Of a DNA stretch of 64,000 nt, positions 2,157 to 55,359 are shown one piece after another; position 1 is the stretch's first letter, and each line of letters opens with the position of its first letter. Under the pieces are notes generated by a model. That model was not told where the DNA came from. It saw only the letters and a list, made by a program, of their open reading frames with translations, and ran no database searches. This DNA is from a virus (Duplodnaviria > Heunggongvirae > Uroviricota > Caudoviricetes), in IMG/VR virus record IMGVR_UViG_2693429668_000006. One strand, given 5' to 3'. Position numbers and translations under genes: made by a program.

Positions 2157-2543
2157 ATGTCTGATAACAAGATTGAATTTATAGAAAGTCGCTACGCTGC
2201 TTTTATCGCAGGGTTGATTGAATCCTCACCTATGAGCCAGGCCCAGATAGCCAAAACAATTGGGTATAAAAACGCCAACAACCTTTCTTTAATTAAAAGC
2301 GGCAAAATTCCTTTGCCTATCGATAAGGTTCGTCCGCTGGCGCTGGCACTGGGCATTGAGCCAAGTCGTCTTATGATGATGGTGCTGGAAGAACGCCAAC
2401 CCGAACTCGCAGCATTTTTATACAAAGAAGGCACTGCTCCTCTTAACGAGGACGAAAAACAGGTTCTTGCTGCATATAACGAGCGATTCGGTAAAGAGAA
2501 AGGCGCATCACAAAAGGTTGTTGAGGCCATAAAGTCTCTATGA
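2157..2543 (+). CDS. HTH XRE-family transcriptional regulator
   Basis: Helix-turn-helix-like segment SQAQIAKTIGYKNANNLSLIKSG; divergent from integrase. Confidence 0.55.
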   Translation: MSDNKIEFIESRYAAFIAGLIESSPMSQAQIAKTIGYKNANNLSLIKSGKIPLPIDKVRPLALALGIEPSRLMMMVLEERQPELAAFLYKEGTAPLNEDEKQVLAAYNERFGKEKGASQKVVEAIKSL

Positions 2544-3641
2544 AAAATTTACACGAATAAGCTCTGTTGATAGACGATCTCCCTTAAATTTGTGGTCAAT
2601 TTCGTCTAAATCCGGTTGCTCTACGATTGATGCGATGTACGTCGAGAAACTTTCTAAGGCGTCTCGCATCTCGTCCATATAATCGTGCCGGTCGTAGACC
2701 CGATCTATCCCCTCAAGACTGTGGTTCATGATTTTACGTGATACCTCCTGGCTTATGCCTAATGCTGGGAAGTAACTACGCGCAGTACGGCGCAAATCTC
2801 GGGGTGTAAATGGCTCAAGCTCCATCAGTTCTGGTCGTTCCAGAATACGACGTAATGCCTGGGCTATTGCCACTTTAGACATAGGAAGGTCTTTCCCGAT
2901 TTTTTTATTCGAAGGCACGAGCCACTGGCTGTCTTTACCATATTCGAACAACTCTTCAATACAAGTGCGCATTAATGAGCTTAAAGGCAGAGAATGCTCA
3001 CGGGCAGATTTGTTCCTCTTGCCTTGATTCCAAACCCCACGCTTAAGATTGAACTCACTTTTTTTAGCCCGCAGTACTTCGTCAGGTCGTCTTGCGGATA
3101 CAAGACATAGCCTGGCCGCCCATTTTGTACCAGCGCACACATTGAAGTAGTCCCATATATTCCAGAACACCCATACCTCTGCGTCGGTCAGCTTCCGCTC
3201 GCGAGGTGTGGGCTTTGCGCCACCGGCAACTTTGTTAAGTGACATATCGTTTAACGGTGACACGTCTATCATCCCCTGGAAGGCGCACCAGCTAAGGAAC
3301 TGCTTCATCAGAGAGAAAACGCGGCGGCCCATAACAATTTTGCCATCCAGTATTAGTGGGTTGACCAGTTGGTTCACCATGAACCTATTAATGTCACTTA
3401 CTTTTACATCGGCAATGTGCGGCAAAACATGTATCAAAATACAATGAACAGCGATCTCTGGCCGACGTCTGGTTATCAGCAGAGATAAGCGAGTGAATAA
3501 CATGAATGCGTCCGAGAATCTCATGTCATTGCTGACCTGGGAGATCATAACGGCCTGCATTTGAGATGCTCTTTCGAGATACTCTATCGCCTCTTTTGAG
3601 GTGTTCTCCGCAGCGCGTGCTCTGTCAAAGCTATTTTTCAT
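2538..3641 (-). CDS. tyrosine recombinase / phage integrase
   Basis: C-terminal region RDLRRTARSY...HSLEGIDRVYDRHDY resembles tyrosine recombinase catalytic region; true start may be an internal Met. Confidence 0.7.
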   Translation of the reverse strand: MKNSFDRARAAENTSKEAIEYLERASQMQAVMISQVSNDMRFSDAFMLFTRLSLLITRRRPEIAVHCILIHVLPHIADVKVSDINRFMVNQLVNPLILDGKIVMGRRVFSLMKQFLSWCAFQGMIDVSPLNDMSLNKVAGGAKPTPRERKLTDAEVWVFWNIWDYFNVCAGTKWAARLCLVSARRPDEVLRAKKSEFNLKRGVWNQGKRNKSAREHSLPLSSLMRTCIEELFEYGKDSQWLVPSNKKIGKDLPMSKVAIAQALRRILERPELMELEPFTPRDLRRTARSYFPALGISQEVSRKIMNHSLEGIDRVYDRHDYMDEMRDALESFSTYIASIVEQPDLDEIDHKFKGDRLSTELIRVNFS

Positions 3642-3851
3642 ATGACAATCACCGAGTTACGCCGATGCACTGTATAAGTAAACAGTATATTAGGCATAGA
3701 TTCTTATAGGATCAAGAGTAAAAGTAACTCATTTTCAGCAATGATTCCATACATAGTAGGTATGGAATCATTTAGCCGTTGTTTTTTGAATTTTAAGGGA
3801 ACCAAGCGTGAGTTTGGTGGGAACAAAAACGGCTCCTGTGAGCCGTTAAAA

Positions 3852-4097
3852 TTAGAGAGTGGTGACGTATGCAGCCAGTTCTGTGTATCCGCCAATCGGT
3901 TGGCCATCGATCAGTACCTGGGGGATAGTCTCTACCGGTTTGCCAACAATTTCGCTAAGTTTTTCCTTATCGATACCGGCAGTGGTGATGTCGATGTACT
4001 CATAATCACCATAGCCGTGTCCCTTTAGTTGTTTCGCCAGCTCGACCGCACGTTTGCAATATGAGCAGTTATCTCGTCCGTAGATAACGATAGTCAT
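3852..4097 (-). CDS. glutaredoxin
   Basis: 81 aa, CSYC active-site motif near N-terminus, overall similarity to Grx1-type sequence; SD GAGGT before ATG. Confidence 0.7.
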   Translation of the reverse strand: MTIVIYGRDNCSYCKRAVELAKQLKGHGYGDYEYIDITTAGIDKEKLSEIVGKPVETIPQVLIDGQPIGGYTELAAYVTTL

Positions 4098-4236
4098 GTT
4101 TACCTCATAATAATTATGTGTTACTTAACCAGAAAATAAATATTACTATAAAAGATAGGTAAGTAAAAACCTATTTAATGTCTGCAATACATCGTAAACT
4201 TGCCTGTTAATCACAACTTAATTTAGTTAATATTTA

Positions 4237-5565
4237 ATGCAACTAACAATGGTAAGTACGAGAGCATACATGCCTGTTTTTATTTCTGTTGCAATTCTAA
4301 TGTTTTCCATAATAATTTTGTTTTTAGGTTTACTACTTGAGCCATTTCAAGATTGGAAGGTTACAGACCAAATTGCTGTATTGAGTAGTTTTATAACGAC
4401 AGCGGCTTTTTGTGCAACAGCGTGGAACGCCTATGAAGCAAGAAAAAGTGCAAAGGCAGCACTGGAGGCCGTTAGGATAACTACCGATTCATTGATTGAG
4501 ATGAGAAAAAATTCTTTCAAAGAATGGTTTGACACTTTATTAAATCAGCATGATGAGTTGTACAATAATGTCATACCAATCATTGAACAGACAAAAAAAC
4601 AATTTAATAAAAATGAAATGCATTCGTTTTTTTATCCATTGGTAAGAAAGCATGAGGTTATTCAGTACATAAAACATATTACCAATATATTAGTCTATGT
4701 AGATAACCGATTTTACATAGATGGAAATTGTTTTGATGAAAAAATGGAATATATTATTCAATTGAGTGGAAAAATACCACCGCAAATGAAGTTGGTTATT
4801 GCAGTTTTTGGATTGGACATCGATTCTCGTGAACCGCTGGATTCAAAAAAACTGTATGCTTTATTAAATAAATATGATTTTTTCAAAGATGAAATATTCT
4901 TTGATGATGCTTATTCAAGCATGCCTGAAGTAGAGCTATTTATAAAGGATAGATTTGATAAAATATTTAAAACCAAGATGTTAAAATACTTTTGGAACGT
5001 GATTAAGGAATATTATTCTCAAGTTGAAGTCAAAGAAATCTGGGTGGTTCGTCGTCCGCAAGTTGCTTCATCGGTATTAATGAACTACCAAACACCATTA
5101 TCTGGTTTAATTGATGATTATTTTAAAAATTTGCCAAATGAGGTAAAGAGCATTTTTGATGAAGCACTAAAAAAAGCTAATGATAGTGTTACGTCTATTG
5201 ATGACTATATTCATCGTTTGATCGGTTGCAGAGTCGCGTCGATTTCAGAGCATGTCCATTTCGAAAGTGAAATACTGAGTAGTGAAAAGGATGTGAAGGA
5301 TATGATTAAAAATTACATAGAGCAAAGAAAAACTGGAAAAAATGCGGTAAATCTTGGGCAGTTATATTTCTCGAGTGAGTCAGATGTAATTACAGGTGAT
5401 CAGTTGAGTGATGCGATCGATGAATATGAGAAAAAGTTGGCACTTATGGCAATAAACGATAATGATGATAGTGATAACCTATTGTGCCATATCTATATTA
5501 AATCATGTGAGATAGTTGATGAATATAAGCGTGAAACATTAAAATTGGGCGAGTACGCACAATAG
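4237..5565 (+). CDS. hypothetical membrane protein (two N-terminal TM helices, about 380 aa cytoplasmic domain), AT-rich
   Basis: Long ORF in strongly AT-rich DNA; hydrophobic segments PVFISVAILMFSIIILFLGLLL and IAVLSSFITTAAFCATAW. Confidence 0.55.
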   Translation: MQLTMVSTRAYMPVFISVAILMFSIIILFLGLLLEPFQDWKVTDQIAVLSSFITTAAFCATAWNAYEARKSAKAALEAVRITTDSLIEMRKNSFKEWFDTLLNQHDELYNNVIPIIEQTKKQFNKNEMHSFFYPLVRKHEVIQYIKHITNILVYVDNRFYIDGNCFDEKMEYIIQLSGKIPPQMKLVIAVFGLDIDSREPLDSKKLYALLNKYDFFKDEIFFDDAYSSMPEVELFIKDRFDKIFKTKMLKYFWNVIKEYYSQVEVKEIWVVRRPQVASSVLMNYQTPLSGLIDDYFKNLPNEVKSIFDEALKKANDSVTSIDDYIHRLIGCRVASISEHVHFESEILSSEKDVKDMIKNYIEQRKTGKNAVNLGQLYFSSESDVITGDQLSDAIDEYEKKLALMAINDNDDSDNLLCHIYIKSCEIVDEYKRETLKLGEYAQ

Positions 5566-5816
5566 GTTGTGCAGATTCGAAGCCTCTTTAAATTTTGCGC
5601 TGAAAATTGTTATTTTACGGTAAGTAACGCTGTTTTCAGCGCATAAATGTCAGTGAATAATTTGATGCTTGCTGTAACGATGGTACGCTACGTAAAATCC
5701 GATATTTATGAGACTGATTGCAGGTAAGGACTTACATAGCGCACAAAAATTGCTGATACCAGATGCAATATATGTTTAATGTCAAATTTTAGATAGGGGC
5801 GTATACGCCCCTGTCA

Positions 5817-6371
5817 TTATTTTATTTTATCTTCTTCTAAACGAGAAAATTTAAATTGTTTATCGGTGATGGTGAGTAGTGTTACACCTTCCTTTTCGTG
5901 TAAAAGACCGGCACCGTTTGACACCATAATCAATCTATCCTTCCCTCGAAAGATTTCATAATATTTACCAGCTCCACAAGTTTTAGTTTCAATACAGTCC
6001 ATGCCAGATACTGCTTCTCTGTTAAAAACACGATCTTTTGTAGCAACGGGTTTTCCGTACTCCTTTGTCAGCATTTCACTTATCTGGATGAATGTATACT
6101 TACCAACATTACTGGTTAATGACATTTCGACTTTTCCGTCGATCAGGTTGCCATTCGTATGCGGTTCTTTTTCAGTCGGACTATTTTTATCTTGAAGAAT
6201 AAACACTTCAACATTTTGTGTTAGCTTCTTGAATTGGGCTTTATAATTTTGTTCAAGTTCACTTTTATCTTTGCCTATTAACGTTAATTCATCTATTTCA
6301 GATTCGTTACACCCTGTTAGTGTTAACGCAATTATTAGAGATGCGAAAATATTGAGATGGCACTTCTTCAT
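5817..6371 (-). CDS. lipoprotein (signal peptide with lipobox LTGC)
   Basis: N-terminus MKKCHLNIFASLIIALTLTGC; AT-rich; hairpin 5795..5812 just past stop. Confidence 0.55.
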   Translation of the reverse strand: MKKCHLNIFASLIIALTLTGCNESEIDELTLIGKDKSELEQNYKAQFKKLTQNVEVFILQDKNSPTEKEPHTNGNLIDGKVEMSLTSNVGKYTFIQISEMLTKEYGKPVATKDRVFNREAVSGMDCIETKTCGAGKYYEIFRGKDRLIMVSNGAGLLHEKEGVTLLTITDKQFKFSRLEEDKIK

Positions 6372-6490
6372 TAATTTGTCTCCATGTTTAACTGCTGCGA
6401 TCTAATCAGGAACATGAAGGCAGTCTAACGCTGCCTCGGATCAAAGCGATAAAACGATACGTGAATATAACTAAGTGTCAACAAATCAAA

Positions 6491-6515
6491 AAAGGGGCCG
6501 AAGCCCCTTTGAATT
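6491..6515 (-). terminator. rho-independent terminator downstream of tRNA cluster
   Basis: Hairpin GGGGCCGAAGCCCC (6494..6507) followed on minus strand by TTTTTTGATTT. Confidence 0.5.
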
Positions 6516-6584
6516 TTGCGCTGAAAAAAGTGTTGCTAGGATGTTAGCAAGCTATGGTTAAGAACGTCTGCCGTAATTGTCTAT

Positions 6585-6662
6585 CACAGCGTTGAGCGGT
6601 CTGGTTTATGTTAGCGGAGTCTTAATCTGGTTGATTAAAAGGCCAAACCGCTCAACGCTGTG
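6585..6662. repeat. long inverted repeat (16 bp perfect arms, 46 nt loop) flanking tRNA cluster
   Basis: Arms CACAGCGTTGAGCGGT (6585..6600) and ACCGCTCAACGCTGTG (6647..6662). Confidence 0.6.
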
Positions 6663-6664
6663 TC

Positions 6665-6751
6665 TGGCGGAGAGTAATGGAATCGAACCATCATCGTTTG
6701 CACAATGGGACGGTTTTCAAGACCGCTTGAGCACCATGCTCCCTACTCTCC
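6665..6751 (-). tRNA. tRNA-Ser-like (anticodon UGA), type II, 87 nt
   Basis: Acceptor GGAGAGT/ACTCTCC, anticodon loop CTTGAAA, T-loop TTCGATT, 3' GCCA; hand-folded, D-arm not fully resolved. Confidence 0.5.
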
Positions 6752-7045
6752 AATTGTGTTGTGTGCTCCGTTTCGTGGAGCTAACGGCGGGTGATCAGAC
6801 CGCACCAGGTTGGACGTATTTCAGCGTTATGCTGTTGCAAGAGAGCCAAATTGTGATGGCCGGTGCTGATCTCCGGCATTGCCTACGTTAGCGGCCTTCA
6901 GGCAGTTCATCCGCTTGCTTCTACGTCGCACATCAGCCTGTGCATTCACCACAATGTTGAGAACACTGGTTGTCACGCTGCAACGCAACATTATATTCAT
7001 AAATTGGGATATGAACCCGTTACGCCAATGTTCTCAATATTATGT

Positions 7046-7121
7046 TGGTGCCGGTTAACGGACTTGAACCGCTGGCCATTTGCTTACAAAGCGACTGCTC
7101 TACCAACTGAGCTAAACCGGC
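7046..7121 (-). tRNA. tRNA-like, possibly tRNA-Thr (UGU), with imperfect anticodon stem (possible pseudo-tRNA)
   Basis: Good acceptor (GCCGGTT/AACCGGC), D-arm and T-arm, 3' ACCA, but anticodon stem GTCGC/GCAAA pairs at only 3 of 5 positions. Confidence 0.4.
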
Positions 7122-7125
7122 AATT

Positions 7126-7212
7126 TGGTGGGGAGTGATGGAGTCGAACCACCCGAGTCGCAATGACAGTAGATTTACAGTCTACACCGCTACCTCTACG
7201 GACTAACTCCCC
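7126..7212 (-). tRNA. tRNA-Tyr (anticodon GUA), type II, 87 nt
   Basis: Acceptor GGGGAGT/ACTCCCC, anticodon stem-loop GTAGA-CTGTAAA-TCTAC, long variable arm, T-loop TTCGACT, 3' ACCA; differs from host tyrT. Confidence 0.6.
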
Positions 7213-7217
7213 TAAAT

Positions 7218-7292
7218 TGGCGATGGTGGGTGGATTCGAACCACCGATCAGTTGGTTAACAGCCAACTGCTCTACCGCTGAGCTACACCATC
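7218..7292 (-). tRNA. tRNA-Asn (anticodon GUU), 75 nt
   Basis: Canonical cloverleaf: acceptor GATGGTG/CACCATC, D-arm GCTC-AGCGGTA-GAGC, anticodon stem-loop GTTGG-CTGTTAA-CCAAC, T-arm GGTGG-TTCGAAT-CCACC, 3' GCCA; sequence differs from host tRNA-Asn. Confidence 0.75.
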
Positions 7293-7556
7293 AATTCAGC
7301 ACTGCCAGTATTTATTACTCAGCAGTGCCAATCGCGGCGGTGTTAGTTTTTGCCAATAAACGCACCGCTACTTGCACTTTTCGTTAGTGCCAGACGTTTT
7401 CGACTTCGCTCAATAGAAGGCAAAATCTTTAAGTAGATGATGTTTCTGAGGACAGCACCTACTTTGTAATTTACATAATGCGGTGTATGGAATCATTTGT
7501 TGTGAAAACAGGCACCAATGGCAACAGTGGTTAAACCTACACAACAATCCTGTCTT

Positions 7557-8372: not shown

Positions 8373-8521
8373 TTTCTCACCTTTGTTTCATGAATTACCC
8401 GATACACACGCTTTCCGATGCACAGTGTTTTGGTTTTAAGTTCCTGCTTAATTAAGTCACGACAGATGCCGAAGCCGATAAGGAAACCAGCCATAAAAGC
8501 TAATGAGATGTATGGAATCAT
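8369..8521 (-). CDS. small membrane peptide (50 aa), translationally coupled
   Basis: Hand-translated MIPYISLAFMAGFLIGFGICRDLIKQ...; ATGA overlaps with both neighbours; below ORF-track size cutoff. Confidence 0.35.
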   Translation of the reverse strand: MIPYISLAFMAGFLIGFGICRDLIKQELKTKTLCIGKRVYRVIHETKVRK

Positions 8522-8733
8522 TCTAACGCTCCTGATTCTACTAATTGCTGTAGCAATACTTTCCCTTTATCAGTTAACTGGTAGTTGGCCGAGCACCACG
8601 TTTCAGAAACGTTTGCAACCAACCCTAACCGCTCTAACTTAGCCCGCGTTTTAGGCTTCCAGTACTCAGGGAACTCCGGCCACTTACTGATTTCATGAAG
8701 CGTTTCCTTCTCCCGCTTACTTAATACGATCAT
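8518..8733 (-). CDS. hypothetical small protein (71 aa)
   Basis: ORF track; coupled to neighbouring small ORFs. Confidence 0.4.
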   Translation of the reverse strand: MIVLSKREKETLHEISKWPEFPEYWKPKTRAKLERLGLVANVSETWCSANYQLTDKGKVLLQQLVESGALE

Positions 8734-49518: not shown

Positions 49519-50409
49519 TTATGCCGGTAAAGCAATTTCTAACGGTTTATCCAAAGGTTGTTTGTCGAATGCCAGCAGTGGCAGCGTGTCAGGCAGTCGA
49601 CGGCCAAAGTCAGGGTTTCGGTACACACCATACAACGGAGACGTAAAGCTCAGGTTGTGAATGTCCTTGAGCAGCTTCACAATGCTGGCCTCGTCCACCA
49701 GACTGTCGGCAATGTCCTGAATCGTCGTGCCACGATTCCGCCCAGCTTTTGCCAGGGAACTGTTCTTATGGTAGTCCGCCACCAAATCGCGCAGCGCACG
49801 GCGACGACGAGACTCGCTCATAGCGAACAACTCTTTGACGATCGCCTCGTTATCACCCGGGTCGGAGCGGAAATGGCGCTGGAACACACGCAGTGCACTT
49901 TCATAGCTCTTCGGTCGCTCAGGGCGGATGAACTTAAACCCTGCTTTCATGGCGAAGGGATTGTATTTGCTCATCGAGGACTGGATCTCAATGATTGGCC
50001 GGTCATGCATCCTGCTAACCAGGTTAATCATTCTATAAGAGACGCCTACGCCACGATACTGAGTATCCACAACTGAGCGACTGATCACCGCAAAGTTGTT
50101 ATTCACGTACCGACCCCAGTACTGGTTAGCCACGGTGGTATTAGTGGTTGGTTTCAACTTAGGAAACATGCGGTGGCGAGGTGCCAACAGTAGTTTCGGG
50201 TAAGCCATAACCACGACGCCCACCAGACGGTCATCAAGTTCGCAGCGATAGTAAGTTGGCGCGAAAGGTTTGCCGTCTGTTTTGTAGTGAAGCGACTTAA
50301 GAGCGTGCCAGTCCTCTACAGTTCCCTTTGTAACAGTCATTCGCTCCAGAAAGTCCAGATGACGCGGAAACTCTTCAGGGCGGTAGCGTTTAATGATGAT
50401 GTCCGTCAT
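49519..50409 (-). CDS. GNAT-fold acetyltransferase-like protein
   Basis: Motif A-like VVDTQYRGVGVSYRMINL (Q-x-x-G-x-G); 296 aa; start overlaps stop of ABC ATPase gene. Confidence 0.5.
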   Translation of the reverse strand: MTDIIIKRYRPEEFPRHLDFLERMTVTKGTVEDWHALKSLHYKTDGKPFAPTYYRCELDDRLVGVVVMAYPKLLLAPRHRMFPKLKPTTNTTVANQYWGRYVNNNFAVISRSVVDTQYRGVGVSYRMINLVSRMHDRPIIEIQSSMSKYNPFAMKAGFKFIRPERPKSYESALRVFQRHFRSDPGDNEAIVKELFAMSESRRRRALRDLVADYHKNSSLAKAGRNRGTTIQDIADSLVDEASIVKLLKDIHNLSFTSPLYGVYRNPDFGRRLPDTLPLLAFDKQPLDKPLEIALPA

Positions 50410-51071
50410 GAATGGACCTCATCATGACTACCATTGTGATATTCCACCTTCACGCGTTCTTTGTAGTGCTTGGTGATCTGCATATCAGGGCGCAGCGCGT
50501 TCTTCAGGTCTTCGTGAGTCGTCGCCACCATTACCGTCGCACCAACCTTTCGAGCGGCACGCTGGAGGTTAGACGCCACAACCTGAGCGGTTACACGGTC
50601 GAGAACAGCGCCGAACTCGTCAGCAGCCCATACTTTAGCGCCTGACTCAATCAGTTTGGCAATCTTGAGACGATATTTCTGGCCGTCTGACATTTCAGAA
50701 GGCTTGCGAACAAACAGATATGCATCGTTCAGACCAGCCATAGATAACAACCCAAGCGCATCACTGGTCGTTTTGCCCAACTGATCGATGACGTTAACCT
50801 CATTATCGAAGGTAAAATCATCGATGGAGGCTACAGACAGCCCTTCATCCTTCATCTGTCGTTGCAACTCGCGCAGCACAACGGATTTGCCGGAACCGGA
50901 TTGGCCGGTGATGTACACCACATCGCCCTGCTTCACTTCCAGCTCCAGATTGTCGTAAAGCGTCCACTCTTTTTCGTCCAGGCCAAGCCCGAACGACTCA
51001 GCGATTTCCAACGTGCGCGTGGTTTTATTTACGCGTGTCTGAAACGATACGTTGATGATGTATTTGCTCAT
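50406..51071 (-). CDS. ABC-type ATPase (soluble, single nucleotide-binding domain)
   Basis: Walker A GQSGSGKS, signature MSDGQKYRL, Walker B KVWAADEF, H-loop VATTHE. Confidence 0.65.
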   Translation of the reverse strand: MSKYIINVSFQTRVNKTTRTLEIAESFGLGLDEKEWTLYDNLELEVKQGDVVYITGQSGSGKSVVLRELQRQMKDEGLSVASIDDFTFDNEVNVIDQLGKTTSDALGLLSMAGLNDAYLFVRKPSEMSDGQKYRLKIAKLIESGAKVWAADEFGAVLDRVTAQVVASNLQRAARKVGATVMVATTHEDLKNALRPDMQITKHYKERVKVEYHNGSHDEVHS

Positions 51072-51736
51072 GCAGCCATCTCCCCGGAAGAGATCTTCTC
51101 CGCATATGCCACAAATGCGTCTACCCCGCTTTCTCCCGTCATTTCTTCCATATGGGCAAGCAAATCACCAACAACAATGGCAGAGCCAGCAGGGAGCGTT
51201 TTAAAGCCCAATACGTCGACAACACGTACTTCTTCCGCTGCAACTTCACGACTGATCTCGGTGTGTTCATCCTTCTGTCGTTTAGTTTCTTCGCCAAGAT
51301 CGATAACTAGCGAGTCGGTGTCCATTTCTTCTGTCATACTGCCAACGAGAACATTCAACTCACGCTCTTCAAAGCCGAAAACCTCGATATCGTCCAGAAC
51401 AAGCGACTCAAGCTCTTTCTGTAGCTTAATTGCATCGTAATCAATGCTGGCAAGTCGGTTATCTTCAAGGCGCTTCGCACGAACCTCGTCATCACTGAGA
51501 TCATCGCGAACAATAACCGGTACGCGCTCAAGTCCAGCAAAAATTGCAGCCTCACGGCGGCCGTGGCCAGTAATAATTACGTCGTTCTTATCGACCGTAA
51601 TTGGCTGGTCAAATCCGCGCTTTTTAATGGCTGCGGCTAGATCTCGGATCTGCTGTTCATCATGCTTTTTGGCATTCATCTCATAGGGAATAAGATCTGC
51701 CGGGTCGCGATATACGATTTCAAACTTTTTGGTCAT
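51068..51736 (-). CDS. ParB-like nuclease domain protein
   Basis: ParB/Srx motif ITGHGRREAA; acidic C-terminus; start set at ATG 51736 overlapping upstream stop. Confidence 0.55.
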   Translation of the reverse strand: MTKKFEIVYRDPADLIPYEMNAKKHDEQQIRDLAAAIKKRGFDQPITVDKNDVIITGHGRREAAIFAGLERVPVIVRDDLSDDEVRAKRLEDNRLASIDYDAIKLQKELESLVLDDIEVFGFEERELNVLVGSMTEEMDTDSLVIDLGEETKRQKDEHTEISREVAAEEVRVVDVLGFKTLPAGSAIVVGDLLAHMEEMTGESGVDAFVAYAEKISSGEMAA

Positions 51737-52434
51737 TACATACGCTCCTTGTAGTAGTCGACCAGCCACACCAGAGCCTCACCAGCGTTCTCCATTTCAT
51801 TACCGGTGTTAATAGCCTGCTCTTTGATGATGTTTTTTATGGTTTCTGCAACACGATCTGACGCATCGAAAGTTACTTTGAAGCGCATGGTCTGATGTTC
51901 CGCACCCACACGTTCGGTTTTCTCTCGTTTGTCGGTATCGACAGGCTCATCACTACCACGAGACAACGCCTCCAGTGCTTCAAGGTCGATTGCCGCCTCT
52001 TTTGCTAAAACCATCGAGATTTCGTCGTCATACGGAGCGATTTCAGACAGTTGATAGTCAAGTTCTGACTGAATTTCTTCAATGAAGCGTTGCAATGCGA
52101 TTTGGTCGTCTTCACCGTATCGCTCGTTGTCCACCAGTGACATCTGTTTAGCTACGACATCGCTAATTTTGCCCACAGAAAGCACCGGAACCGTTGAAAT
52201 TCCTTGCTCAATAGCAGCACGCCAGCGATGTTCGCCGCCGAGGATTTCAAAAAATCCATCTTCAAGTTCACGAGCCAAAATTGGCTTAAAAAAGCCCAAT
52301 TTTTCGATAGAACCTTTCAGTTTTTCAAAATTCTGCGCACCAACCGAATTGGTGTTCCAGGTATTCGGGCGAAGGTTGGCAACATCAACCTGCAAAATCG
52401 TGATTTTTACATCCATTTTATTGCTACAATCCAC
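51736..52434 (-). CDS. ParB-like nuclease domain protein (second copy)
   Basis: ParB/Srx motif ILGGEHRWRAA. Confidence 0.55.
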   Translation of the reverse strand: MDCSNKMDVKITILQVDVANLRPNTWNTNSVGAQNFEKLKGSIEKLGFFKPILARELEDGFFEILGGEHRWRAAIEQGISTVPVLSVGKISDVVAKQMSLVDNERYGEDDQIALQRFIEEIQSELDYQLSEIAPYDDEISMVLAKEAAIDLEALEALSRGSDEPVDTDKREKTERVGAEHQTMRFKVTFDASDRVAETIKNIIKEQAINTGNEMENAGEALVWLVDYYKERM

Positions 52435-52498
52435 TAAGTAATCACTTACTTATTATAATAGCCAAATAACATACAAAAGGCACTAAGGAAAGAGGTTT

Positions 52499-54058
52499 AT
52501 GACTGTTCGGATTGTATCTAACGCAGTAAATGCGCTTATTTCTGGCGCAGATGACAAGGTAAAGCAACTGGTGCAGCAAATGTTGAGCTACGAAGTCGAG
52601 ACTGGCGACTGGAAGGGCACAAGCACGATGTTCAACTGGAGTAAAAACTCGTTCCCTGCTGGCTTTGCCAAGCCTGTAGCGGCGAACTTGAACAAGGCGG
52701 GCATCAAATGTGTTCATATCCGCAAAGACAAAGCCCCGGCGCTTGGTAAACCAAATCCTGCGGTTAACCCATTCCCATACAATCCTGATTATGCGTATCA
52801 GGATCAGACTGTGGAAACACTGGTTCGAGAGGGAATGATGATTGCGCAGATCGCTACTGGTGGCGGGAAATCTAACGTTGCCTGCAAAGCAGCTGCACGT
52901 ATCGGTCGAATGACATTATTTTTAACAACCCGCTCTGTTCTGATGTTTCAAATGGCCGAAAACTTCCAGAGATCCATCGACTACCGCGCCGAAAATGGCG
53001 AACCGTGGTTAAAAGACCAAAAGGTTGGAGTCATTGGCTCGGGTGAGTTCCAGGTATCACGACATATCAACGTCGCTACAGTTCAAACTCTTGCAAGTTT
53101 CCTCGAAGAACCACCACGCGATGCAACACCAGATAAGAAAAGCTACCACCTCAAACGTCGGGAGTTGGTGAAACGCTTCCTTTCAAGTGTCTCTCTTCTT
53201 ATTCTGGAAGAGGCGCATGAGTCTTCAGGCTCAAATTTCTATGACATCGCCAGATTATGTGTGAACGCAGACTATCGTCTGGCGCTTACAGCCACGCCGT
53301 TCATGAAGGATTCGACGGAAGCCAACATGCGCCTGATGGCGGTGGCCGGGCGAATTGAAATTAAAGTCACAGAAAAGTACCTGATTGATCGAGGCATTCT
53401 GGCAAAGCCGTACTTCCTTTATCATAAAGTTGCCTACAAGCCAGACGAGGCCAGAATCAAGGCCGAACTTGCCAACAAACACCTCAATTTTAGAGTTGGT
53501 ATGAGCACCGCCTACCAAAAGGCTTATCAGTTGGGGATCGTGTATAATTTGGGACGTAACGAGGCCATAGTGCGCGAGGCATTGCTTTATAAGCAACATT
53601 CACTCAACTGCATGACTCTGGTTCGTCTTAAACGCCACGGGCAAATCCTGATGGAGATGATGAAGGAGTCAGGTCTTAAAGTTGATTTCATCTATGGGGA
53701 ATCTAACCAGACGACAAGGCAAGCAAAGCTGAATAGTTTAGCGTCTGGTGAAATAGATGTTTTAATAGGCTCGACTATTCTGGATGTTGGTGTTGATGTG
53801 CCAAGCGTTGGTGCGGTCATTCTTGCTGGTGGTGGGAAAGCAGAAGTTGAAATGAGACAGCGTGTCGGTCGTGGCTTACGAGCCAAAAAAAATCAGGCAA
53901 ACGTGTGTTTTATCACCGATTTCATTGACATTAGCAACAAATACCTGTTGTCTCACTCTTATGAGCGAAAACACATCATCGACACCACACCTGGCTTTGC
54001 AGAAGGTGTATTGCCTATTGATGGAGCATTCGATTTTGGAGTTCTGAAACGAGATTAG
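52499..54058 (+). CDS. SF2 (DEAH-type) DNA/RNA helicase
   Basis: Walker A ATGGGKS, DEAH-like LILEEAHE, motif III TATPF, motif VI QRVGRGLR. Confidence 0.7.
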   Translation: MTVRIVSNAVNALISGADDKVKQLVQQMLSYEVETGDWKGTSTMFNWSKNSFPAGFAKPVAANLNKAGIKCVHIRKDKAPALGKPNPAVNPFPYNPDYAYQDQTVETLVREGMMIAQIATGGGKSNVACKAAARIGRMTLFLTTRSVLMFQMAENFQRSIDYRAENGEPWLKDQKVGVIGSGEFQVSRHINVATVQTLASFLEEPPRDATPDKKSYHLKRRELVKRFLSSVSLLILEEAHESSGSNFYDIARLCVNADYRLALTATPFMKDSTEANMRLMAVAGRIEIKVTEKYLIDRGILAKPYFLYHKVAYKPDEARIKAELANKHLNFRVGMSTAYQKAYQLGIVYNLGRNEAIVREALLYKQHSLNCMTLVRLKRHGQILMEMMKESGLKVDFIYGESNQTTRQAKLNSLASGEIDVLIGSTILDVGVDVPSVGAVILAGGGKAEVEMRQRVGRGLRAKKNQANVCFITDFIDISNKYLLSHSYERKHIIDTTPGFAEGVLPIDGAFDFGVLKRD

Positions 54059-54060
54059 TT

Positions 54061-54339
54061 ATGAGTGAAAAGAAAACAACTTACTGTCAGGTAGCATTGT
54101 CTGATAAGGCCAATGACAAACTTGGAAAGTTTCAAGTGAAACTAAAAGAAAAAAATATCAAAATGTCTAAGGCTGAAGTCATAAATACCATTCTGGAACA
54201 ATTGACAATGGCCGACTTTGACAAGGTTATATCTTCTGTCGGGGCTTCCGCTAAGACTCGTGAGAAAATCATGCGTATCTATGAGAACTCTAATATGACA
54301 AAGGAAGATCTCGAAACGCTATTAAGCAGATTAAAATAA
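54061..54339 (+). CDS. hypothetical small protein
   Basis: ORF track, 92 aa. Confidence 0.4.
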   Translation: MSEKKTTYCQVALSDKANDKLGKFQVKLKEKNIKMSKAEVINTILEQLTMADFDKVISSVGASAKTREKIMRIYENSNMTKEDLETLLSRLK

Positions 54340-54365
54340 TCACGCTATCAATTAGGGAGACAAAG

Positions 54366-54830
54366 ATGAAGTCTCCCATACTGTTCACTTTCTGTTCTAA
54401 AACTATCATGAAATACTCGCTTCTCCCTCTACTAACGTTACCAGTGTTGATGCTTGCCGCGTGCCAATCACACCCAATATCAATCCATGACGCCAAACCA
54501 GCACCGCAGGCCAAAGTGTTAAAGTATCAAAGCGCAGCGCCAGCTACGTTGGTGGTAATGAGAGACACAGGTTTTGTAGGAGCTGGATGTGATGCTTCCA
54601 TTTTCATCAACGGCGAAACTGTCGCAAAACTGGCTACAGGCGAAAAAGCGACTTTCCATTTAAATGCCGGAGAATTAATTGTGGGTGCATCTCTTGAAGG
54701 TGCAGGTTTATGTGCTCTAAACCCCGCTCGTCAAGAGCGAGAAACGACTCTGAAGAATGGAGACACAAAAGCGTTCAGGGTGTTTACCAGCAATTCTGGT
54801 GACATCGACATTCTGCCAACAACTCTGTGA
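54366..54830 (+). CDS. lipoprotein
   Basis: Signal peptide with lipobox LMLAAC. Confidence 0.5.
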   Translation: MKSPILFTFCSKTIMKYSLLPLLTLPVLMLAACQSHPISIHDAKPAPQAKVLKYQSAAPATLVVMRDTGFVGAGCDASIFINGETVAKLATGEKATFHLNAGELIVGASLEGAGLCALNPARQERETTLKNGDTKAFRVFTSNSGDIDILPTTL

Positions 54831-54834
54831 TGAC

Positions 54835-55359
54835 ATGACAACCAAAGATATTACCTACGGTATCCAAGCTGAACTCTGGCCGCGAGATTACACTAACGTT
54901 GAAAAACTACTGATGTTCTGGCGCAGAGAACAAATTCCTGTAAGGGTCACTCTCGAAGATGGCCAGGCGTTTTGCATGTACGTTTATGGCCTCATGCCAT
55001 CTCGTAACAAAGTTGACCTTTGCCCAGCCCCTTTTGACAAAGAAAATCGTATAAGGCTCCCACTTGAACGCATTAGTACAATTGAATCAGGTGTGGTTGA
55101 CAGTATCGCTCACGATTTCAAAGGTCGACTAACAGTTCACCCTGATTATGTCGATAATCGGCCATCACGCCGCGATTTTTTTGCAATTTGCAACCAAGCC
55201 TACAAAGCAAACAAATCTATAAGGGTGTACATGGCGGATGGCCGTGAAATTGAGGGGGTGTCAGCAGGCGCAGATGCTTGTCAGGTTACACTACGTGTCG
55301 AGAACGGTAGAAAAATAGTTGTTTTGTTCGATTGGGTTGAACGAATTTTGCCTTTTTGA
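54835..55359 (+). CDS. hypothetical protein; start uncertain
   Basis: ORF track (54757 start overlaps previous gene); internal ATG at 54835. Confidence 0.4.
   Translation: MTTKDITYGIQAELWPRDYTNVEKLLMFWRREQIPVRVTLEDGQAFCMYVYGLMPSRNKVDLCPAPFDKENRIRLPLERISTIESGVVDSIAHDFKGRLTVHPDYVDNRPSRRDFFAICNQAYKANKSIRVYMADGREIEGVSAGADACQVTLRVENGRKIVVLFDWVERILPF

Follow-up and report, generated by a model that had tools for sequence, protein, structure and literature searches.

The two direct repeats that bracket a small lipoprotein gene in the 64,000-nt stretch of DNA analysed here (hereafter the window) are quite probably two copies of the border of a cargo locus, left behind as the scar of stacking two alternative cargo modules, and not recombination sites. 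One of the repeats (copy B) is embedded in an intact element, called E, which forms the terminator and structured tail of a tRNA operon. The other (copy A) is best read as a truncated relic of the same element. A preliminary description of this DNA had proposed instead that the arrangement arose by cassette-like acquisition of the gene through site-specific or illegitimate recombination, or from a duplicated terminator module.

Pairwise alignment of copy A (5578-5606, CGAAGCCTCTTTAAATTTTGCGCTGAAAA) and copy B (6499-6527, CGAAGCCCCTTTGAATTTTGCGCTGAAAA) gave 27 identities over 29 nt, the two copies lying 921 nt apart, start to start. The pair is thus real, but the length of about 33 bp given at first has to be reduced to 29 nt, since ends at 5610 and 6533 are reached only by introducing gaps. 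No homology was detected past the 29 nt on either side, where alignment scores of the flanks remained inside the range of shuffled sequences. When up to 3 mismatches were allowed, the 29-mer had two matches in the 64-kb window and none in any of 100 shuffled controls; no match is expected by chance. With just two copies in the window, the repeats are therefore not terminator sequences shared widely across the genome. The lipoprotein gene does lie between them on the minus strand, as described, and is the sole ORF of at least 60 aa on that strand between the repeats. Insertion of a transposon with target-site duplication was considered separately and rejected: the repeat is 29 nt long with 2 mismatches, and no inverted repeat pairs the sequence starting at 5607 with that ending at 6498.

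The replicon is, by sequence, an SSU5/pHCM2-like phage-plasmid of E. coli, and the region matches Escherichia phage Cyrano, CMS-2020a and ~800 PLSDB plasmids. The local order is integrase, grxA, a gene of 442 codons (the 442-aa gene), copy A, lipoprotein gene, copy B, 4 tRNAs, small genes and DNA ligase. The features on which the analysis relies are as follows.

2538-3641, minus strand: tyrosine integrase gene, ~2 kb from the repeats
3852..4097, minus strand: grxA (glutaredoxin, 81 aa), an ORF annotated GrxA in relatives, the conserved left flank of the variable locus
4237..5565, plus strand: 442-aa gene (phrog_18168), product with N-terminal hydrophobic helices
5578..5606, plus strand: copy A, read as a truncated relic of E comprising the loop and right arm of the terminator plus 20 nt beyond
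5593..5646, plus strand: copy-A hairpin, in which the right half of copy A pairs with an inverted partial copy of E
5607..5792, no strand assigned: orphan junction segment of 186 nt, with no convincing ORF and no coding remnant
5792..5815, plus strand: strong hairpin, GATAGGGGCG-TATA-CGCCCCTGTC, followed by a T-run (fold z = -5.7)
5817..6371, minus strand: lipoprotein gene (184 aa, phrog_15156), with a lipobox, LTGC, read from the sequence
6454..6481, minus strand: promoter-like TTGACA-16-TATCGT upstream of the lipoprotein gene, a consensus match only
6487..6584, minus strand: distal part of E, with the terminator hairpin (6491-6510) and a conserved upstream tail; contains copy B (6499-6527)
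6585..6664, minus strand: proximal part of E, a conserved 20-bp hairpin (6585-6604/6643-6662) right after tRNA-Ser
6665..7292, minus strand: tRNA cluster, Ser 6665-6751, Thr 7046-7121, Tyr 7126-7212 and Asn 7218-7292, its transcript presumably ended by E

Element E (~6487-6664, ~180 nt) combines a bidirectional terminator with the structured tail of the tRNA operon on the minus strand. In this tail, the 20-bp hairpin, whose loop varies, is followed by a conserved unpaired stretch and then by the terminator. The overlap of copy B with a terminator hairpin, noted earlier at 6494..6507, was borne out with slightly wider limits: the hairpin at 6491-6510 reads GGGGC-CGAA-GCCCC on the top strand and AAAGGGGC-TTCG-GCCCCTTTTTT on the minus strand (AAAGGGGC-UUCG-GCCCCUUUUUU as transcript). 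On the minus strand (6510-6491) it scored as an intrinsic terminator, with 8 pairs, a UUCG loop and TTTTTTGATTTG, and its fold is usable on both strands. E is thus predicted to end the transcript of the tRNA operon and, in relatives with a single cargo module, would also terminate the convergent 442-type gene.

Using a 100-nt query around copy B, E was found at 641 places in 640 plasmids, one per record and mostly at 87-100% identity, the hosts being plasmids of Escherichia, Klebsiella, Enterobacter, Salmonella and Citrobacter. Its tail is conserved in phage-plasmids of these genera and of Raoultella as well (among them L005/L006 at ~2440-2640, and L048-L053). Across genera the tail is ~87-95% identical, as against ~81-84% for the neighbouring backbone, and the 20-bp hairpin shows two compensatory pair changes and three loop versions. 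Searches against Rfam returned the tRNAs alone as passing hits, with weak matches to L20-leader and BSR0709 that fell far under the gathering scores. The E tail may itself be a small RNA or a product of RNA processing. Apart from the window lineage, no partial copy of E was present in the 40+ related loci. A second GGGGCTTCGGCCCC terminator hairpin occurs in pHCM2 and a Citrobacter relative (L005/L006 3089-3110), ~460 nt beyond E and ahead of a 243-aa gene; it was examined as a possible extra copy of E and discarded, since it has the hairpin alone in common with E, and it is probably an independent terminator.

The interval from grxA to the minus-strand tRNA cluster can be described as a hypervariable cargo locus, with the conserved integrase and grxA genes on one side, E and the tRNA cluster on the other, and unrelated cargo between them. 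Homology with relatives breaks at ~4108 on the grxA side. On the other side it ends past the T-run of the E terminator, at ~6487, and all cargo variation stops there. Comparison of 29 E. coli-type loci revealed at least 7 unrelated left flanks that meet E at the identical base, an A-run followed by the GGGGC arm. Each relative has one cargo module adjoining E, which is a 442-aa homologue, a lipoprotein homologue, AbiH or phoH, or has none: the cargo is absent from Cyrano-type genomes, and in other genera an AbiH gene, phoH or a lipoprotein homologue is next to E. Because at least 7 different cargo sequences abut E at one base, E is the right border of the hypervariable cargo locus, and copy B consequently belongs to the backbone and not to an insert.

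Two observations concern the contents of this locus in other plasmids. In the Klebsiella and Raoultella relatives K. pneumoniae pF138_1 (L049) and R. planticola p3_SCLZS62 (L052), the gene adjoining E is annotated as an AbiH-family abortive-infection protein, which suggests that the slot is a defence or accessory hotspot. In MF554642.1, positions 50321-55045 are equivalent to window 3600-7000 and are otherwise 100% identical, with ~1.3 kb more DNA, annotated as a mobile element protein, in the part that corresponds to window 3600 to 4237; the addition looks like an IS that has inserted left of the 442-aa gene.

The origin of copy A was approached through relatives of the 442-aa gene, whose homologues are 30-56% identical at the amino acid level. 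The loci L004 and L007, together with seven IMG/VR loci, carry a homologue of 55-56% identity and no lipoprotein gene. In these relatives the homologue stops 14 nt ahead of an intact E, the CGAA loop following 25 nt after the stop codon. In the window, copy A begins 12 nt past the stop codon of the 442-aa gene, and the alignment with L004/L007 is colinear from the gene through copy A, ending at 5606. Copy A matches E at 93% identity, compared with ~67% between the adjacent gene and its relatives, and no variant of E nearer to copy A than the E. coli consensus was found. What copy A lacks is the left arm of the terminator, AAAAAAGGGGC, in the place of which stands GCAGATT. As a result of this replacement no terminator hairpin forms, and copy A did not score as an intrinsic terminator. 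The notion of a duplicated terminator module thus holds for copy B, which lies in a real, family-wide terminator, but not for copy A, which retains only the loop, the right arm and the next 20 nt. The transcript of the 442-aa gene probably reads through copy A to end at the hairpin at 5792-5815, which we interpret as a convergent terminator for this gene and as the point where the lipoprotein module ends on its 3' side.

Copy A with its context is confined to the window lineage. It was recovered from 3 PLSDB plasmids, 5 IMG/VR contigs and 5 of 5426 complete E. coli genomes, in all five of the latter on plasmids that are at least 99.6% identical. Every context of the 100% identical 442-aa allele includes the lipoprotein gene, and these contexts are all identical. 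No allele between 100% and 56% identity was present in a search of 5.8 billion proteins, and neither closer alleles nor empty sites of the 442-aa gene were detected in IMG/VR, JGI metagenomes or GTDB genomes. The protein received no assignment from Pfam, PADLOC or NCBIfam and belongs to a PHROGs family of unknown function; its structure model (pLDDT 73.7) gave no significant fold match in the PDB.

These data also bear on the reverse polarity, in which the arrangement of the window would be ancestral and the common form, a gene followed directly by E, would have arisen by deletion between the direct repeats. In favour of this scenario, slippage or RecA can bring about deletion between direct repeats 29 nt in length. 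Such a deletion would however yield a junction between the 442-aa gene and E that lacks the left arm, and all relatives with a single E keep the arm intact. In addition, the predicted deletion junction, GCAGATTCGAAGCC...GCGCTGAAAAAAGTG, is absent from IMG/VR, JGI metagenomes lack copy A joined to its left flank, and the 442-aa alleles in single-E relatives do not exceed 56% identity, no intermediate having been found. An ancestral status of the window arrangement therefore appears very improbable indeed.

The lipoprotein gene, whose product starts with MKKCHLNIFASLIIALTLTGC, has a patchy distribution, being present in 108 of ~800 related plasmids. Searches of Pfam, PADLOC and NCBIfam returned nothing for the protein, PHROGs gave a family of unknown function only, and the structure model (pLDDT 48.7) was too poor to search with. 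The promoter-like site upstream of the gene lies just downstream of the E terminator, and its TTGAC box is retained by the L002-type allele in spite of divergence elsewhere; such promoter-like sites are no more numerous than chance predicts. In L002-type E. coli plasmids, in L046 and in Enterobacter (L051), the lipoprotein homologue and its upstream region abut a single E, colinear with window 5818-6761. In pHCM2 and a Citrobacter relative (L005, L006), the homologue is likewise accompanied by one E only, and a P1-like IncY plasmid (L008) carries a homologue together with the same hairpin as at 5792-5815, E being absent.

As the gene occurs elsewhere without a second repeat, its site-specific acquisition is not supported: homologues go with one copy of the element or none, a pattern that the preliminary description itself had named as counting against its proposal, and no presence/absence polymorphism was seen at the repeats. 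The idea of a mobile cassette, inserted for example by the integrase encoded at 2538-3641 with the 29-mers as att-like sites, draws on the tyrosine recombinase gene ~2 kb away and on the fact that direct repeats bracket one gene. The gene does not, however, travel with flanking sites, as homologues are found beside a single E or, in the P1-like plasmid, without E. No empty site or precise deletion was encountered in PLSDB, complete E. coli genomes, IMG/VR, JGI metagenomes or the protein-context index, and presence and absence do not alternate exactly at the repeats, all carriers of the 442-aa allele having the lipoprotein gene. Furthermore, the 29-mer, read by eye, is devoid of the inverted arms and spacer of a core site, and copy B belongs to a terminator that every relative has, cargo-free ones included. 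Taken with the single-E relatives, these observations make site-specific insertion of a cassette extremely unlikely. Illegitimate recombination, also put forward in the preliminary description, survives in a modified form, in which two alternative cargo modules were stacked and the repeats are retained pieces of the border.

Exchange at this border was observed directly in a sister lineage with the same two-gene stack (L042, Logan SRR29183797). Its sequence is identical to the window from 4000 to ~6080, carries an L002-like tract over ~6090-6498, and is identical again from the A-run of E, at ~6488. The swapped tract includes the N-terminal half of the lipoprotein (the protein is 85% identical overall at the amino acid level) and the promoter region, so that the gene is an intragenic mosaic. 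The end of the tract at E indicates homologous exchange bounded by E.

What E is and where it occurs, the colinearity of genes with E, its single copies elsewhere and this ongoing homologous exchange are direct observations; the order and mechanism of the stacking event are inferred. In other plasmids either gene can stand alone beside E. The most economical history requires a single illegitimate join, in which unequal recombination between a pair of family members, or within a heterodimer or concatemer, would have linked '442-gene-E...' to '...lipoprotein-gene-E-tRNA'. The window lineage would then carry both modules in tandem, each having kept 'its' E, truncated in the case of copy A and intact in the case of copy B, and truncation of the first E could have taken place during the join or later. 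No parental plasmid was found that combines this 442-aa allele with one intact E, nor any donor for the 186 nt at 5607-5792, and the event is for this reason reconstructed only from alleles that are 55-85% identical. For the 186-nt segment, the homologues that blastn returned from plasmids, phages and E. coli genomes were confined to the window lineage, exact scanning of species-representative genomes and self-comparison with the window and all loci gave no source, and no match was obtained with the proteins and flanks downstream of the lipoprotein gene in relatives.

The junction itself holds a further trace of E. The inverted repeat reported at copy A (10 bp, 5597..5606/5633..5642) was confirmed and proved slightly longer, pairing 5593-5606 with 5633-5646 at 13 of 14 positions and folding at -22.7 kcal/mol (z = -2.3). 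Its distal arm belongs to an inverted 24-nt fragment of E, located 16 nt from copy A: 5623-5646 matches the reverse complement of 6514-6537 at 20/24 positions, a score reached by 2 of 2000 shuffles. A single crossover does not explain this fragment, nor does it explain the missing left arm of copy A. Together the two features suggest a complex junction, possibly generated by template switching; otherwise, changes must have followed later.

A rival reading takes copy A and the inverted 24-nt fragment both to be templated filler, produced by template switching in replication (a complex MMBIR or fold-back junction) during insertion of the lipoprotein module, copy A being in that case not the E inherited with the 442-aa gene. 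The direct and inverted fragments do copy overlapping parts of E (6499-6527 and 6514-6537), 0.9 kb away, and both sit exactly at the junction. The 10-nt extension of the inverted fragment matches E at 7/10 positions and the flank of copy A at 3/10, and on its left side copy A begins inside the hairpin loop. On the other hand, copy A lies 12 nt past the stop codon, in keeping with the spacing between gene and E in relatives, and the alignment is colinear, which makes simple inheritance the easier explanation; moreover the fragments are just 93% and 83% identical to E. We consider an origin of copy A as templated filler unlikely, and retain the stacking of two modules, each with its border, as the preferred reading.

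A functional reason for keeping the 29-mer twice was also weighed. As a cis element, it could for instance give the 3' UTR of the 442-aa mRNA an antisense match (27/29) to the tail RNA transcribed from the tRNA operon. The stronger conservation of the E tail than of the backbone across genera, its covarying hairpin, and the preservation of copy A at 93% next to a gene at ~67% would fit such a role. However, the 29-mer is the least conserved stretch within E, pHCM2, Citrobacter and L046 differing there, and window-type sequences are all near-identical, so that they provide no measure of the conservation of copy A. Retention as a cis element thus seems quite improbable. More speculative still, with very little likelihood attached to it, is the proposal that the E tail might be a phage-plasmid small RNA to which the 3' UTR of the 442-aa mRNA would be coupled via the antisense 29 nt and the adjacent sense-like fragment, or that the repeats might act as a low-frequency switch for deletion of the lipoprotein gene.

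Other structured or repeated sequences were noticed around the tRNA region. Upstream of the tRNA cluster are two inverted repeats, 7557-7576/7659-7678 (20 nt, 95%) and 7750-7775/7813-7838 (26 nt, 88%). The first has the motif CACARCGTTGAG in common with the E hairpin and so may be a member of a family of structured elements in this region. The 15-mer ATGTATGGAATCATT occurs four times (3740-3754 on the minus strand; 3758-3772, 7483-7497 and 8508-8522 on the plus strand) against 0.2 expected, a number attained in 0 of 100 shuffles. Two of the four copies together make a palindrome in the interval from the integrase gene to grxA, and the 15-mer looks like an operator or another protein-binding site. 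Finally, the spacer between tRNA-Ser and tRNA-Thr (6763-7061) is ~82% identical to the upl/plp region beside the tRNA genes of phage P1, pointing to a non-coding or small-ORF segment common to two phage-plasmid families; P1 Plp is encoded at a different locus.

Direct repeats around one gene may thus be conserved border copies left by the stacking of modules and should be taken with caution as signs of a cassette mechanism. The analysis also places a cargo hotspot precisely, immediately downstream of the terminator of the tRNA operon, in the SSU5-like phage-plasmids that are very common among Enterobacteriaceae. Genes for membrane proteins, lipoproteins, AbiH and other accessory functions are swapped at this hotspot, knowledge of which aids annotation and tracking in these plasmids.

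Several known systems offer points of comparison. Phage morons are units of promoter, gene and terminator inserted between backbone genes, a concept that goes back to Hendrix and Juhala. The lipoprotein unit resembles a moron in combining its gene with a promoter-like site and a strong predicted hairpin terminator, and in its occurrence in the unrelated P1-like backbone; the flanking repeats lie outside the moron unit. For T4-type phages, Arbiol et al. are said to have described in 2010 'mobile regulatory cassettes' (PeSLs), repeated units of promoter and stem-loop that flank ORFs in hyperplastic regions. There too, a small accessory gene in a plastic region has repeated regulatory stem-loop sequence to either side. 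PeSLs nevertheless occur in many copies with their stem-loops kept, whereas the window has two copies in 64 kb and copy A is stemless, so that the likeness is superficial. Integron cassettes and att-flanked islands share with the window the placing of one gene between direct repeats near a tyrosine recombinase gene; in contrast to them, the window has no attC-like structure and no empty site, and its gene is found elsewhere without the repeats.

The case is one of ordinary mosaicism of temperate phages and phage-plasmids. For SSU5 and P1 phage-plasmids, variable 'plasmid-like' repertoires of accessory genes are documented (PMC7969092, PMC10879196), and a bioRxiv survey reports Tn3-like insertions 'near tRNA loci' in SSU5-like elements (10.1101/2025.09.12.675607). 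As in such mosaics, alternative cargo lies between conserved flanks, exchange ends at the border, as in the sister lineage, and defence-type cargo (AbiH) fills the same slot in relatives. What sets the window apart is that two alleles are stacked and a 29-nt piece of the border is duplicated, a one-off in a small clonal lineage that does not characterise the family as a whole.
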